Below, one piece after another: positions 21,780-33,709 of a stretch of DNA of 64,000 nt. The stretch is from an uncultured Bilophila sp. (GTDB lineage: Bacteria > Desulfobacterota > Desulfovibrionia > Desulfovibrionales > Desulfovibrionaceae). The stretch lies in the NCBI RefSeq assembly GCF_902373525.1, contig NZ_CABKMN010000005.1; one strand, given 5' to 3'. How positions within the stretch are numbered: the stretch's first letter is position 1; the number at the start of each line of letters is the position of its first letter. Position numbers and translations under genes: made by a program. The notes under the pieces are model-generated. The model had not been told where the DNA came from and did not search any database. It saw nothing but the letters and a program-made list of their open reading frames with translations.

Positions 21780-21856
21780 GTCCCCATCGTCTAGCCGGCC
21801 CAGGACAGCGGCCTTTCACGCCGTCAACAGCGGTTCAAATCCGCTTGGGGACGCCA
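21780..21856 (+). tRNA. tRNA-Glu (anticodon TTC)
   Basis: GTCCCCATCGTCTAGCCGGCCCAGGACAGCGGCCTTTCACGCCGTCAACAGCGGTTCAAATCCGCTTGGGGACGCCA is near-identical in architecture to E. coli tRNA-Glu. Anticodon loop CTTTCAC. Encoded CCA. Confidence 0.9.
21809..21856 (+). repeat. attL core, 3' 48 nt of tRNA-Glu
   Basis: CGGCCTTTCACGCCGTCAACAGCGGTTCAAATCCGCTTGGGGACGCCA, repeated at 33662-33709. Confidence 0.75.
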
Positions 21857-21865
21857 AGAAAAATC

Positions 21866-21897
21866 AAGCACTTACATGAAATGTAAGTGCTTTTTTC
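21866..21897 (+). terminator. Rho-independent terminator just inside the island, terminating the tRNA operon
   Basis: AAGCACTTACAT-gaa-ATGTAAGTGCTT perfect 12-bp hairpin followed by TTTTTCG. Confidence 0.6.
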
Positions 21898-21900
21898 GTA

Positions 21901-21934
21901 TGTGGGGCAAATTTGCCCCACGCTCTGCCCCATA
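21901..21934. promoter_or_regulatory. Putative integrase arm-type binding sites, left end
   Basis: TGTGGGGCA (inverted), TTGCCCCAC and CTGCCCCAT within 34 nt. The same TGCCCCAC motif is repeated at the right end. Confidence 0.4.
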
Positions 21935-21995
21935 GATTCTGACGATTTGAATAACTAACCAAAACAGTATAAGAAATTATTAAGTGAGGGTTGAG

Positions 21996-22808
21996 ATGGT
22001 TACGATATCGGAATTTGCTCAAGATATTATCACAAAACAATACAAAAATCTTGTCCAAGCAAAGAGGCCTGAATATCTCTCTGTATGGCCACTCATCCAT
22101 GGTTATGTCTTAGTCTTTTACACATTTAATGACTGGATAATTCTTTCATTAAAAAATAACTCACCTAATTTTTTTAATACAAGCGGCGGCTCAGCTTTAC
22201 CACAATCAATTATCGGATTTTCAGAAATAACCTCCCAGAATATTAATGTAGTAAGAGAAAATATAAAAAAATATGCTGGAATTGATCGTGATGGGGGTGT
22301 TATAATTTTCAATAACGATGGCAGAGACGTAAATTTCACAGAAGAACTAGACCTTCTTTTAAAACAGCATGATATGATGTTTGGATTGAGGCCAATGAAA
22401 ATATTTTTAAGTCACAAGTCTGAAGATAAAGTCAATATAGTTAGAGATTACAAGCAAACGCTCCAGCTGCTCGGTTTTGACCCTTGGATTGATGAAGATG
22501 CAATGGTCGCCGGAACTAAGCTAGAGCGTGGTATTCTGCAAGGTTTTCAAGATTCTTGTGCTGTGGTTTTCTTTATCACTGAAAATTTTAAGGATGAAGA
22601 TTTTTTAGCAACTGAAATTGATTACGCTCTCAACCGGACTAGAGAAGATAAAAATTTTGCAATTATCACAATTGTTTTGGACAGTGGTTTAACGGTTCCA
22701 GATTTGCTGCGCCCATATGTTTGGAAAAATGTGGATAGCCAGTTAGAAGGACTGCGCGAAATATTGAAAGCACTTCCTATCTCGGTCGGACCAGTTTATA
22801 TGAAGTGA
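21996..22808 (+). CDS. TIR-domain protein with uncharacterised ~135-aa N-terminal domain (candidate antiphage/NADase effector)
   Basis: GTGAGGG RBS then ATG at 21996. 270 aa. C-terminal ~130 aa is a bacterial TIR domain (KIFLSHKSEDKVNIVRDYKQTLQLLGFDPWIDEDAM...AVVFFITENFKDEDFLATEIDYAL). The FLSHKSED beta-A motif and conserved Glu in FITENF match TIR NADase motifs. The N-terminal half has no recognisable family. Codon usage is AT-rich, unlike the host. Confidence 0.75.
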   Translation: MVTISEFAQDIITKQYKNLVQAKRPEYLSVWPLIHGYVLVFYTFNDWIILSLKNNSPNFFNTSGGSALPQSIIGFSEITSQNINVVRENIKKYAGIDRDGGVIIFNNDGRDVNFTEELDLLLKQHDMMFGLRPMKIFLSHKSEDKVNIVRDYKQTLQLLGFDPWIDEDAMVAGTKLERGILQGFQDSCAVVFFITENFKDEDFLATEIDYALNRTREDKNFAIITIVLDSGLTVPDLLRPYVWKNVDSQLEGLREILKALPISVGPVYMK

Positions 22809-22937
22809 CGATTCCGAGTAATTGTTTTTTTGAGGAGGTGCTTCAAAACACCTTTATTCTTTGCTGGCCTGCCGTTCCGATGAAAAAGAAGGAGGAAAAT
22901 ATGTATTTTAAAATGATGAACAGTAAATGATTTCTAT

Positions 22938-31104: not shown

Positions 31105-32110
31105 TGCCGTTGGCGATTCTTCTTCCCGCCGCTGTCAATCTGTATCTTTGTAAGGGACTGCGGGGCGCATCCGGTCTTGTTCGCTCAACAAGAGCGGCCT
31201 CCAGTGCGGGCGACAGGTAATTTTTGCGGAATGTGGGTGCATGGCGCAGCCCCAGATCATCCATCAGCTCAGCCGCGCTTTTTTCCCCTTGCCCAAGTGC
31301 CTCCAGTAAGCGTCTTACTTGATCGCTCACTTGGTCGCTTACTTGATCGCTTGGGATATCGGTCACGGCATCGTTCAGGGCCGCGAGCATAAACTCCACA
31401 AAGGCAGTTGCTTCTCCCTGTGCATCGGCACGACCAAGGCTGTCGTAATATTCGGTCTGCCTATTACGGACAATGGTTTCCACCGGCAGATAGGCAAAAA
31501 GAGGATTCCACTTGCTGAGGATGAGCGTTTGCCAGAGGCGTCCCATGCGACCGTTGCCATCCGCAAACGGATGGATGAATTCAAATTCGTAGTGAAAGAC
31601 GCAACTCGAAACCAGTGGATGCTCGTCCGTCTTTTCCAGCCAGCCAAAAAGTTTTTTCAGGTGTTCATGCACCAGGTGAGCGGGCGAGGCCATGTGTACG
31701 ACTCTGTTGCCCTGAAAAACGCCTACGCCGCCAGTGCGGAGACTGCCGGGCCTTTCCACAAGATCGCGCATGAGTACTGCGTGAGCCGACAGCATATCTT
31801 CCAGCTTGTGGGGTTGCCATGTATCCAGTCTTTCATAGGCGGACACTGCGCCGTGTACTTCCTGAATGTCACGGGGCGGCCCAATAACCGTCTTGCCGTT
31901 AATAATGTCCGTCACCTGTTCCAGACTGAGCGTATTGTTTTCAATGGCAAGAGATGCATGGATGGTACGAATACGATTTTCCCGCCGCAGATGCGGAGAC
32001 AGAAGATCCACGGCAAGTCCCCTGAGGGCGGCACGTGCGGCAAGCTATTCGCTGATGTTCGCCACACGTTTGAGGATGGCGCTGGTGATGGTGTATGGCG
32101 GATACGTCAT
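31085..32110 (-). pseudogene. Fic-family protein (HPFx[D/E]GNGR AMPylation motif) interrupted by an in-frame TAG
   Basis: Main ORF 31085-32011 has HPFADGNGRMGR. The true N-terminus (MTYPPYTITSAILKRVANISE, ATG at 32110 behind a GGGAGG RBS) is in frame but separated by an amber codon at 32045-32047. 12-nt x3 tandem repeat encoding (SDQV)3 at 31317-31352. Confidence 0.65.
31317..31352. repeat. 12-nt x3 imperfect tandem repeat inside the Fic gene (encodes SDQVSDQVSDQV)
   Basis: CTTGATCGCTCA / CTTGGTCGCTTA / CTTGATCGCTTG. Confidence 0.5.
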
Positions 32111-32201
32111 GCGGCGCATTCCTCCCTGTTCAGATATGTATCAAGGCAGGTTACAACAAGGTGAGCTTGATGCGGGTACAGGTGTTGGCTGCAAGGATGG
32201 T

Positions 32202-33431
32202 TCATGCGCCCTTTTCCCGGCCAGACCGTTTCGTTCTACGAATTTTTAGCGTATCCGGCCCGTTTTGAGAAGACGGCGCTTCGGGAGCATTTTGTATGGC
32301 TCCAAACAGAGAGCCTGCCACACCGGAAGCCTTTTTCAGCGCGTCATCATGCAAATGAGCGTAGCGTTGGGTCATCTGCGGACTGGAATGAGTCAGCAAT
32401 TTTTGCAGCTCGTACATGGACACCTGCCCGGAACTTGCCAGCCATGAGGCAAAAGAATGGCGCAACCCATGCAGGGGGCGAAATGATTCCGGCAATCCCG
32501 CCTTCTCTTTCACTCGCCTAAGCATGTCCGTAATGTTCCCCCTCGGTTTGTCGTCATAGCGACCGGGGAAAACGTAGGGACTTTTGGTCTGCGGCAGGGC
32601 AGTCAGGATAGCGCGAGCCTGGTCGTTCATGGGGATGGTTTCCGTTTTGCCTTTCTTGGCAACGGTCCCGCGCAATGTGATGAATCCCCGCTCAAAATCA
32701 AGGTCTTCCCATTGCAGGTTGAGAAGGGCGCTGCGGCGCATCCCGGTGAACAGAGCCAGACGCACGAGAGATGCCAGCGTCTGGTCCGGCTCTTCGTCCA
32801 GCGCCTTCAACAGATTCTGGACCTGCTCATGGGTAAGATTCTCCGTAACCTTGTTGTCAACGGTGGGCATGGTGATGCGGAGAGTGCCGGGAATGAAGTC
32901 GACATATCCTTTCTGCAAGGCGAAATTCAGTATGCGTTTGACCAGAGTCAGAACGTGCTTGACGGTCTGCGGAGACTTGCCCGCTTTTTCCAGTTTGGCG
33001 CGGAGCTTGTCTATATCGTGGATGGTCAGTTCGGGAATGCTTTTCGATCCCAGAGAAGGAGCGATATGAAGGTTGAAGCGGATACGGTCATCCTTGATGG
33101 AACGATTGGAGCTTTTGGCTTCCTCGAACAGGCTCCACAATCTGTTGAAATTGTATCGTGATTCCTCAGCCATCTTTGCTGCGCGAACGGCAATACGCTT
33201 TTCCTCGTTGGAGGCGTCTTTGCCTTCCATACGGAGTCCACGGATGCTGGAGGCTTTGGCGGCGGTCATGTTGTCGCGGTATTGTCCGCCGACTTTTTCC
33301 TCGATGAGCTTTCCCTGCTTGCGGTATCGAATGTAATAGACCTTTTCCAACCCATGCCCTGTTGAACGTGGAACTTCAACAAAATACACTCCCGCATAGC
33401 CTACGACCGACTGTCTTTTTCTGCTTGCCAT
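32202..33431 (-). CDS. int: Tyrosine-type site-specific integrase (P4-like, tRNA-targeting)
   Basis: Catalytic region HGLRHSFASWLASSGQVSMYELQKLLTHSSPQMTQRYAHL (R...HxxR...Y). N-terminal arm-binding-like domain (VYFVEV...KVYYIRYRKQGK). ATG at 33431 with AAAGAGG RBS; alternative ATG at 33467. Adjacent to attR. Confidence 0.85.
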   Translation of the reverse strand: MASRKRQSVVGYAGVYFVEVPRSTGHGLEKVYYIRYRKQGKLIEEKVGGQYRDNMTAAKASSIRGLRMEGKDASNEEKRIAVRAAKMAEESRYNFNRLWSLFEEAKSSNRSIKDDRIRFNLHIAPSLGSKSIPELTIHDIDKLRAKLEKAGKSPQTVKHVLTLVKRILNFALQKGYVDFIPGTLRITMPTVDNKVTENLTHEQVQNLLKALDEEPDQTLASLVRLALFTGMRRSALLNLQWEDLDFERGFITLRGTVAKKGKTETIPMNDQARAILTALPQTKSPYVFPGRYDDKPRGNITDMLRRVKEKAGLPESFRPLHGLRHSFASWLASSGQVSMYELQKLLTHSSPQMTQRYAHLHDDALKKASGVAGSLFGAIQNAPEAPSSQNGPDTLKIRRTKRSGREKGA

Positions 33432-33526
33432 ATTGCCTTTGACCTCTTTTGGTGTGTTCTGCCCCACATATACGGGATAGAATGGGCTTTAATCCGTTGA
33501 TAACGGCGGAAATAGCCGTTTTCATA

Positions 33527-33547
33527 TGCCCCACACTATGCCCCACA
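33527..33547. promoter_or_regulatory. Putative integrase arm-type binding sites, right end
   Basis: Tandem ATGCCCCACA x2 (33527-33535 and 33539-33547) between the integrase start and attR. Confidence 0.4.
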
Positions 33548-33661
33548 AACGGCATAAAGTCCAATCGAAGTCGGCGGCTTTTTGGCAGGAGAAAAATGAA
33601 ATAACTATATGAAATATATAATTTAGTAAGAGTGGGGTAAAGTCGGTCAAAATTACAGTCA

Positions 33662-33709
33662 CGGCCTTTCACGCCGTCAACAGCGGTTCAAATCCCCTTG
33701 GGGACGCCA
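33662..33709 (+). repeat. attR, duplicated partial tRNA-Glu 3' end
   Basis: CGGCCTTTCACGCCGTCAACAGCGGTTCAAATCCCCTTGGGGACGCCA. One mismatch versus attL. No 5' half of a tRNA precedes it. Confidence 0.75.

Follow-up and report, generated by a model that had tools for sequence, protein, structure and literature searches.

The 64,000-nucleotide stretch of DNA analyzed here, referred to below as the window, comes from contig NZ_CABKMN010000005.1 (assembly GCF_902373525.1) of an uncultured Bilophila sp. and carries an island of low guanine-plus-cytosine (GC) content beside a tRNA-Glu gene. This island very probably represents the mobilizable type of integrative element (integrative and mobilizable element, IME), and its own tyrosine integrase would have placed it in the tRNA-Glu(UUC) gene of this human-gut Bilophila. 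The island encodes the integrase, a fused primase-helicase that is followed by an array of short repeats (iterons), a MobV relaxase that is frameshifted in this copy, a serine recombinase and several cargo proteins (Table 1). The copy in the window is probably competent for excision and replication but unable to start its own transfer, because a 1-nt deletion in mobV lies between two catalytic motifs. An initial annotation, made from the letters of the same DNA, had proposed a plasmid-derived mobilizable island, and its claims are considered below with the results that bear on them. For comparison, about 75 related loci were gathered by context look-ups and a metagenome scan; individual loci are given with the handle L and a number.

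The island lies between two copies of a 49-nt direct repeat that differ at 1 of 49 positions (G at 21843 and C at 33696), which agrees with the near-perfect repeat on which the initial annotation had based tRNA-Glu integration. The repeat spans the second anticodon-stem base to the tRNA 3' end and corresponds to the 3' two-thirds of tRNA-Glu(UUC). This is the signature of an Islander-type insertion, with a regenerated tRNA-Glu at one end and a displaced repeat fragment at the other. The C at 33696, in attR, would disrupt a T-stem pair. The 11,804 bp between the repeats have a GC content of 49.8%, compared to 62.3% and 62.5% in the flanks, as expected from the earlier description of a low-GC segment, and the first 2.1 kb of the island, with the TIR and lipoprotein genes, have a GC content of 34%. 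An Rfam scan of positions 21000-34500 identified the two tRNAs of Table 1 and nothing else.

An empty site was found in L003, a locus from a related Bilophila metagenome-assembled genome (MAG). In L003 the same tRNA-Gln/tRNA-Glu pair is joined directly to the sequence found at 33711-33800 of the window, with 2 mismatches in 90 nt, and positions 381-519 of L003 match window positions 33800-33662 at 97.8%. Because attB is unoccupied in L003, the two flanks of the window belong to one locus. The flanking TerC-family protein is 97% identical to that of the L003 MAG and 88% identical to that of B. wadsworthia ATCC 49260. Strains in other samples that have an identical TerC protein and a 99.2% identical left flank carry different DNA 3' of tRNA-Glu: L162, L163 and L165 resemble the B. 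wadsworthia type strain after the tRNA gene, and L164 has another island with an integrase fragment. The gene block is thus not conserved everywhere at this locus. Past the 90 nt, the right flank of the window (33800-40083) diverges from L003 (1-380); either the OEP-MFP-RND efflux operon adjoining the island could be a variable region in its own right, or a rearrangement could have affected the locus.

The window is the same as scaffold_86 of FERR18-1_SAMN06350121 in the European Nucleotide Archive (ENA), with 0 mismatches over 22.6 kb, and an independent Logan assembly of run SRR5273993 contains the same island with the mob frameshift included. In the Logan assembly the island is an 11,864-bp contig. 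This contig was considered as a possible circle and rejected, since its ends coincide exactly with the points at which the shared tRNA sequence forces a k=31 graph to break, and this break accounts for the 11-nt overlap of its ends.

The catalytic residues of the integrase were identified by reading the sequence (R in TGMRR, HGLRH, H in LTHSS and Y in QRYAH), and its gene is 89% identical at the nucleotide level to the integrase gene of the common B. wadsworthia element. The initial annotation had described a P4-type integrase. This label was rejected because the protein does not match Arm-DNA-bind_3 (PF13356) even at E<=10, while the integrase of the sibling element L083, used as a control, matches this family at 1.4e-26; the Phage_int_M score of the island integrase is 23.8 bits, which is below the cut-off of 27. 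The small AlpA-like HTH_17 protein corresponds to the AlpA regulator noted earlier and is a candidate excisionase or activator, with PHROG matches to excisionase and transcriptional regulator at 1.9e-07 and a TIGR01764 score below the cut-off.

Sites resembling integrase arm-type sites are present at both ends of the island, in line with the initial annotation. The sequence TGCCCCAC occurs nine times in the window compared to 2.7 expected, and 0 of 100 shuffles reached nine. Five of these are close to the island ends, within about 110 bp of one and 200 bp of the other, and with two one-mismatch variants (21927-21934 and 33632-33639) they make up seven arm-type sites, divided between a P' arm and a P arm. 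The P' arm sites are kept in L089, L090, L091, L119 and L139, where similarity stops just past the third site, and all four P arm sites are kept in L089, L090 and L119. The stem sequence of the terminator that the island supplies to the rebuilt tRNA gene varies among relatives, with the pairing kept. Promoter-like sites are no more numerous than in shuffled sequence.

The polarity of the insertion was determined from four B. wadsworthia loci (L087-L090). The tRNA-proximal copy of the repeat is identical in these loci (T arm GGGG...CCCC) regardless of the chromosomal site, and the distal copies differ by site; therefore the 3' part of the working tRNA comes from the element, and that of the chromosome has been displaced. 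At hybrid junctions in tandem arrays of such elements, the sequence switches at the 5' edge of the anticodon loop. Judged from these junction sequences, the crossover is probably in or near the anticodon loop.

The replication module consists of the primase-helicase and the iteron array. Of the Toprim/SF3 primase-helicase in the initial annotation, the Toprim part holds (Toprim_3/4), and SF3 is not the group that the helicase most resembles. The helicase part belongs to DUF927, and its closest relatives by sequence (phmmer) are Rep of the Staphylococcus aureus pathogenicity islands (SaPI Rep, 8tch; 2.7e-15) and Cch of the staphylococcal cassette chromosome mec (SCCmec Cch, 5dgk; 6.2e-14). By fold prediction, the C-terminus of the helicase matches the C-terminal domains of SaPI Rep and Cch as well as winged-helix DNA binders, and the second-best fold match is TcpK, a winged-helix protein that binds the origin of transfer (oriT). 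The array of GGTGACA iterons reported earlier is also present: nine copies were found in the window and eight of these lie inside 131 bp (26482-26612). The array begins 3 nt past the helicase stop codon, has five iterons on the + strand and three on the - strand, and contains long inverted repeats. The C-terminal winged-helix domain of SaPI Rep binds six to twelve short iterons located immediately downstream of rep in opposed orientations, and in SaPI5 the primase and Rep are fused (PMC9371898).

Iterons were typed by de novo 7-mer counts in the 250 nt after the helicase stop codon of the approximately 75 related loci. One dominant motif was found for each type of helicase C-terminus. GGTGACA was found at 17 loci with 8.9 copies per locus, and at three more with close C-terminal variants (5-7 copies). 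The other motifs were TGGGACA (14 loci, 6.9 copies per locus), GTGGGCA-type motifs (9 and 14 loci, 5-7 copies), GGCGACA (6 loci, 8-9 copies) and, in distant relatives, GGTAACA (3 loci, 4-5 copies). The boundaries of the variable unit are seen in L094. Its identity to the window is 97% down to about 26845, falls to 30-60% from about 26805 to 26460, and is 92% from the mob start codon onward; therefore the exchanged unit consists of the last ~63 helicase codons and the array, about 345 bp. The mob gene is outside the exchange, as the mob gene of L092 is 93% identical at the nucleotide level to that of the window yet follows GTGGGCA repeats. MobV was considered as the partner that binds the iterons and was rejected because mob does not co-vary with them. 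The array is the predicted replication origin because the iteron type co-varies with the helicase C-terminus, which has a predicted winged-helix fold like those of SaPI Rep and SCCmec Cch. Toprim-DUF927 genes were also found on plasmids of 6-12 kb at <=37% identity, which fits the plasmid derivation proposed in the initial annotation.

The transfer module is incomplete in this copy. Positions 1-111 and 116-195 of the Mob_Pre profile fall in different reading frames, in agreement with the frameshift in the MobV gene that had been noted earlier. Comparison with the intact gene of L091 identified a 1-nt deletion in an A-run at 26139-26140 (AAA to AA; GAGAGCAAAGC to GAGAGCAAGCC), which is present in both assemblies of the source sample. 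The SHNRR motif is in the 138-residue open reading frame (ORF) and the HMDEKTPHMH motif is in the 274-residue ORF; therefore neither product has a whole relaxase domain. In most relatives mob is an uninterrupted ORF of 395-416 residues. The mobilizable type of the element stands as originally proposed, but self-directed mobilization of this copy is doubtful given the split relaxase. Type IV secretion system (T4SS) and coupling-protein families had no match among the island ORFs in Pfam, NCBIfam or PHROGs. The serine recombinase named in the initial annotation was recovered with a PHROG match to DNA invertase (1.8e-53) and a catalytic Ser in RVSS (residues 9-12). The 121-residue protein encoded downstream of mob is conserved in the family and has no significant match in Pfam, PADLOC, NCBIfam or PHROGs.

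Two further observations were made on the mob region. Between the mob stop codon and the 121-residue protein gene are two adjacent short hairpins (25180-25222; GGGCAAGCG/CGCTTGACC and GGTTTTC/GAAAACC) that could be an oriT or a terminator. In alignments with the B. wadsworthia relatives L087-L090, identity is 83% over these hairpins and 74% over the aligned 5' part of mob. Additionally, truncated or split MobV ORFs are present in L084 (12795-14313), L098, L107, L114 and L140. These could represent genuine pseudogenes or errors in low-coverage contigs, and relaxase loss may recur in the family.

The island belongs to a large family of tRNA-Glu elements in Bilophila and Desulfovibrio of the gut. 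A search with the primase-helicase gave 1739 homologues at E<1e-20, the named ones being from Bilophila and Desulfovibrio; in the collection, 569 indexed blocks contain the B. wadsworthia variant, and the metagenome-scan loci with a stated source are mostly human-gut assemblies. The gene order in the family is integrase, cargo and HTH protein, then primase-helicase, repeats, MobV, a small ORF, often a resolvase, and then cargo, and the family is strongly mosaic. Relatives with an 87% identical primase-helicase have a true P4-type integrase and a Phage_AlpA protein, and their integrase adjoins tRNA-Glu in the opposite orientation to the island in the window. Relatives with the integrase type of the window also sit at tRNA-Glu, and for two of them (L089 and L118) the site is the one beside the TerC gene, as in the window. 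Within this tRNA gene, each of the two integrase types appears to have its own sublocation, the 3' end or the anticodon loop. Over 5.6 kb, L094 and the window share 96.8% identity; this stretch takes in the 3' end of the integrase gene, Fic, the DUF1016 stub, the 360-residue protein gene, HTH_17 and the larger part of pri. No match to the whole island was obtained by megablast in PLSDB (plasmids) or INPHARED (phages).

Elements of the family also occur in tandem, and L087 has three at one tRNA-Glu. The arrays at the B. wadsworthia tRNA-Glu (L087 1-22640; also L089, L090 and L091) are parted by tRNA-Glu fragments or hybrid attachment (att) sites. One block is an element with P4-type integrase, AlpA, Toprim-AAA_25 and MobV, another is an element of the window type, and a third contains a further integrase along with HTH_36, DotH/IcmK and TrbI. 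T4SS genes (VirB4/TrbE, VirB3, TrbC, DotH/IcmK and TrbI) flank several relatives, including L087, L089 and L091.

On the basis of these results, a mechanism can be proposed for the element. The element carries a partial tRNA copy that begins in the anticodon stem and includes the 3' end, and recombination would occur probably within the anticodon loop. After insertion, the element supplies the working 3' part of the tRNA and a terminator, and the original 3' part is displaced by 11.8 kb as attR. The seven arm-type sites at the two ends would position the integrase, and the AlpA-like HTH_17 protein may act as an excisionase or activator. The excised circle is expected to replicate like a small plasmid or a SaPI, with the self-loading Toprim/DUF927 helicase binding the eight GGTGACA iterons through its predicted C-terminal winged-helix domain and the serine recombinase possibly resolving multimers. 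For transfer, elements of this kind would use the MobV relaxase together with a mating pore provided by a conjugative element in the same cell.

Several observations weigh against an IME that is still active. The relaxase is disrupted in this copy, no oriT was identified, and the sequence immediately upstream of mob shows no conservation between cassette types. The iteron region holds just a short (15-nt) AT-rich spacer, unlike the AT-rich centre of SaPI origins. A circular attP junction (P arm, core, P' arm) was not found in any fetched locus, and the exact attP patterns of this element and of the B. wadsworthia type had no match in IMG/VR. Exact-protein look-ups with the Int, Pri, TIR and OEP proteins returned the source sample only, and recent movement of this copy is undocumented. 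The match to the empty site of L003 extends only 90 nt before the genomes diverge. Finally, the mismatch between the repeats sits in attR, which is unlike a simple anticodon-loop crossover with a divergent attP and needs a later point mutation; it is best explained as such a mutation in a fragment that is under no selection. If the island had integrated once and were now an inert, decaying remnant that no longer excises, replicates or transfers, then the frameshifted mobV, the reduction of the DUF1016 gene to a 68-residue stub, the point mutation in attR, the missing attP junction (fetched loci and IMG/VR) and a variant known from one sample would all fit. This explanation is unlikely, as the ORFs for the integrase, HTH_17, the primase-helicase and the resolvase have retained their full length, with catalytic motifs in place, the seven arm sites and the eight iterons all fit the pattern kept in relatives, the att repeats differ at a single position, and the replacement of DUF1016 by Fic is shared with L094 and L145, so it is older than this copy and has spread. 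The island may still be able to excise, as the initial annotation suggested. It is hardly credible that the scaffold is a chimera assembled across repeated tRNA sequence. The source is a metagenome scaffold, and contigs of the k=31 Logan assembly end in the tRNA-Gln/tRNA-Glu region and at each of the repeats, but L003 has both flanks side by side, the C variant of the repeat occurs with the right flank only, and the same architecture is found at the same locus in L089 and L118.

The function of the family could also be different from that of an IME. In a phage satellite of the phage-inducible chromosomal island (PICI) kind, the AlpA-like activator would respond to a helper phage, after which the excised island would replicate from Pri-Rep and its origin and be packaged in helper capsids, and MobV would be a dead passenger. 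The 11.8 kb size and the order of integrase, AlpA-like gene, fused pri-rep and iteron origin after rep fit the PICI layout (PMC6092414, PMC9371898), SaPI Rep is the nearest relative of both the helicase and its C-terminal domain, and the relaxase is broken in this copy. A satellite of this kind is nevertheless very improbable here: there is no terS, capsid, packaging-redirection or interference gene among the island ORFs (PHROGs, Pfam, NCBIfam), the attP patterns have no exact match in the IMG/VR viral contigs and the island none by megablast in the phage collection, relatives adjoin T4SS genes, and MobV is intact in most relatives, which indicates that conjugative mobilization is the function maintained in the family. 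A different question is whether the GGTGACA array is an oriT/relaxosome site for MobV, or an operator of the mob promoter, and no replication origin. The oriTs of the MobV family usually lie directly upstream of mob, as in pMV158. The array is directly upstream of mob, it contains long inverted repeats, and the fold match of the helicase C-terminus to TcpK would be consistent with oriT binding. It is improbable that this is its role, since the array is swapped together with the helicase C-terminus and not with mob (the L092 gene keeps its identity beside a different iteron type, and the similarity to L094 resumes exactly at the mob start), and its position, number of repeats and opposed orientation fit SaPI origins. 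The reading of the island as an IME with a predicted origin of the SaPI type is therefore preferred.

Table 1. Features of the island and its insertion site (window coordinates)
Feature	Position	Strand	Basis or remark
tRNA-Gln	21691-21765	+	ARAGORN; Rfam agrees
tRNA-Glu(UUC), integration target, intact after insertion	21780-21856	+	ARAGORN; Rfam tRNA 57.7 bits
attL, 49-nt repeat copy from the anticodon stem through the tRNA 3' end	21809-21857	+	Repeat search
Terminator hairpin and T-run for the rebuilt tRNA gene, 12-pair stem	21866-21892	+	Terminator scan
P' arm, three arm-type sites	21902-21934		GTGGGGCA inverted 21902-21909; TGCCCCAC 21914-21921; TGCCCCAT 21927-21934
270-residue protein with C-terminal TIR domain, cargo, 34% GC	21996-22808	+	Pfam TIR_2 3.5e-14
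Predicted lipoprotein with signal peptide and lipobox LSGC, cargo	23377-23826	-	Sequence reading, hydropathy
Palindrome, 12+12 nt	23970-23993		Conserved backbone of type-A relatives ends at 23988 and cargo begins
Small serine recombinase (resolvase/invertase), 204 residues	24113-24727	-	Pfam Resolvase PF00239 8.7e-30
121-residue protein downstream of mob, conserved in family	24756-25121	-	Gene calls in relatives, 101-132 residues
MobV (Mob_Pre) relaxase pseudogene, 138- and 274-residue ORFs	25269-26455	-	Pfam Mob_Pre in two frames
Putative replication origin, eight GGTGACA iterons in both orientations	26482-26612		Directly after primase-helicase stop codon
Variable part of predicted winged-helix origin-binding domain (last ~63 helicase codons)	26615 to about 26805	-	
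Fused Toprim primase/DUF927 helicase, 876 residues	26615-29245	-	Pfam Toprim_3/4 and DUF927
AlpA-like HTH_17 protein, 74 residues, candidate excisionase/activator	29301-29525	-	Pfam HTH_17 3.2e-11
360-residue protein, two transmembrane helices and ~100-residue coiled coil	29772-30854	-	Conserved family gene
68-residue remnant of DUF1016/YhcG-type gene	30898-31104	-	PADLOC PDC-S02 partial matches
SoFic-like Fic protein, motif HPFADGNGRMGR and Fic-like_C domain, cargo	31085-32011	-	Pfam; PADLOC SoFic 6.4e-38
Tyrosine integrase, 409 residues	32202-33431	-	Pfam Phage_integrase 2e-31; no Arm-DNA-bind_3
P arm, four arm-type sites	33460-33639		TGCCCCAC 33460-33467, 33527-33534 and 33539-33546; inverted GTGGGGTA 33632-33639
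attR, displaced tRNA-Glu 3' fragment	33662-33710	+	Repeat search
Chromosomal right flank with hairpin read as native tRNA terminator (hairpin 33723-33765)	33711-33800	+	Match to L003

All genes of the island are on the - strand except the TIR gene. The initial annotation listed a TIR protein, a Fic protein and a membrane coiled-coil protein as captured cargo; this holds for the first two, which are likely to be related to defence, but not for the 360-residue coiled-coil protein, whose gene is conserved beside the HTH_17 gene in the relatives with this integrase that are covered there. The PADLOC matches of the TIR protein are limited to the TIR domains of ThsB, SAVED-TIR and PDC-S66, and the gene is absent from all related loci examined. 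The N-terminal 130 residues of the TIR protein had no match, and a hydrophobic 53-residue ORF follows on the opposite strand. The 34% GC segment with these two genes (21996-23099), absent from relatives, could be a small defence or toxin module. The PADLOC SoFic match of the Fic protein covers profile positions 58-313 of 361, and its NCBIfam ProtAdlyltaseSoFic score is 56.9 bits against a cut-off of 550. At the position of the DUF1016 stub, L087-L090 have a full-length DUF1016_N and YhcG_C gene (345-365 residues). Fic is also found in L094 and L145, and the Fic-for-DUF1016 replacement therefore predates this copy and has spread.

The lipoprotein has no family match, was called as a 149-residue protein in L002, and lies in a region shared with L139 at 84%. 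The end of the conserved backbone at 23988 is about 125 bp past the resolvase stop codon, and the cargo differs beyond it; the palindrome at this point may be a candidate recombinase crossover (res-like) site for cargo exchange. For the 360-residue protein, 56 homologues were found, none of them annotated, and the AlphaFold2 (AF2) model is confident; fold comparison gave no informative match. Two other parts of the window also have a reduced GC content. A second low-GC stretch (50-57% GC) at 5000-8000 contains an HTH-WYL-WCX regulator gene at 6014-6940, and regulators of this type often accompany defence or mobile genes. At 60000-62000 the GC content is down to 55% around tRNA-Leu(CAG) (61212-61298), beside an M23 peptidase gene (61641-63146).

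The overall design of the island, which combines tRNA integration, a tyrosine integrase, arm sites, an iteron replication module, MobV and defence-type cargo, is well known. Among the Islander tRNA islands (PMC4383910), it is a standard case, with a restored split tRNA, a displaced fragment at the other end and a tyrosine integrase gene at one end. The island is like the IMEs with MobV relaxases (Tn5520 of Bacteroides, IMESag-rpsI and Tn4451; PMC5704250) in that it has att sites for a site-specific recombinase, encodes a MobV-family relaxase of its own and lacks genes for a mating pore, as well as in its tandem occurrence with other elements at the same target and its presumed dependence on a helper conjugative element. 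It differs from them in the Desulfovibrionaceae host, the SaPI-type primase-helicase/iteron replicon and the relaxase frameshift of this copy. A review in 2017 stated that no IME had then been described in Proteobacteria in the category with its own canonical relaxase and no T4SS genes (PMC5704250).

The replication module resembles that of SaPI/PICI elements (PriRep5 of SaPI5, PDB 8tch; PMC9371898, PMC6092414) in the primase fused to a self-loading helicase, the order of integrase, AlpA-like gene, pri-rep and origin, the six to twelve iterons right after the rep stop codon in opposed orientations and the specificity types in which Rep and origin are matched. The primase of the island is however a Toprim (DnaG-type) primase, its iterons are 7-mers, a clear AT-rich centre is lacking, and a relaxase and a resolvase take the place of the packaging/interference module. 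SCCmec Cch (PDB 5dgk) has low sequence identity to the island helicase, and the recombinases of SCC elements are large serine enzymes (Ccr), with orfX/rlmH as the site. The alpha protein of P4 (PMC2777425) has the same three-part plan of DnaG-type primase, helicase and C-terminal winged-helix origin binder. P4 also has an adjoining AlpA/Vis-type gene and a tRNA-targeting integrase. The P4 helicase is of the D5/SF3 type whereas that of the island is DUF927, and the island integrase does not have the Arm-DNA-bind_3 domain that is typical of the P4 type. The P4 type I iteron is TGTTCACC, close to the TGTCACC of the island. No homologues of Psu, Delta, Sid or Epsilon/Ash were found among the island ORFs in Pfam, NCBIfam or PHROGs.

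In the literature searched, no description was found of IMEs from Bilophila or of elements of this family with DUF927 and a relaxase, nor of any other mobile element from B. wadsworthia and its relatives. What is new is the host group for this kind of element, the combination of a SaPI/Cch-type replicon with MobV, and the modular exchange of the origin-specificity cassette and of integrase modules at one tRNA hotspot. It is quite possible, although we put this forward only tentatively, that these loci represent an undescribed and abundant family of elements with interchangeable modules, a conjugative counterpart of the SaPI/PICI design. In such a family, a ~345-bp origin-specificity cassette of at least five types would be swapped by recombination, two unrelated integrase modules would use two sublocations of tRNA-Glu, and elements would pile up in tandem in one cell without cross-talk between their replicons.

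Bilophila wadsworthia and its relatives are common sulfite reducers of the human gut that are linked to inflammation. The results leave the current understanding of how such elements work unchanged; for these bacteria they mean that a single tRNA-Glu gene is a busy insertion hotspot. The family is of use for the annotation of gut metagenomes and for the choice of origins, integrases and att sites as genetic tools in Desulfovibrionaceae. Additionally, the pairing of iteron type and helicase tail provides natural specificity variants for the study of origin recognition by self-loading helicases.

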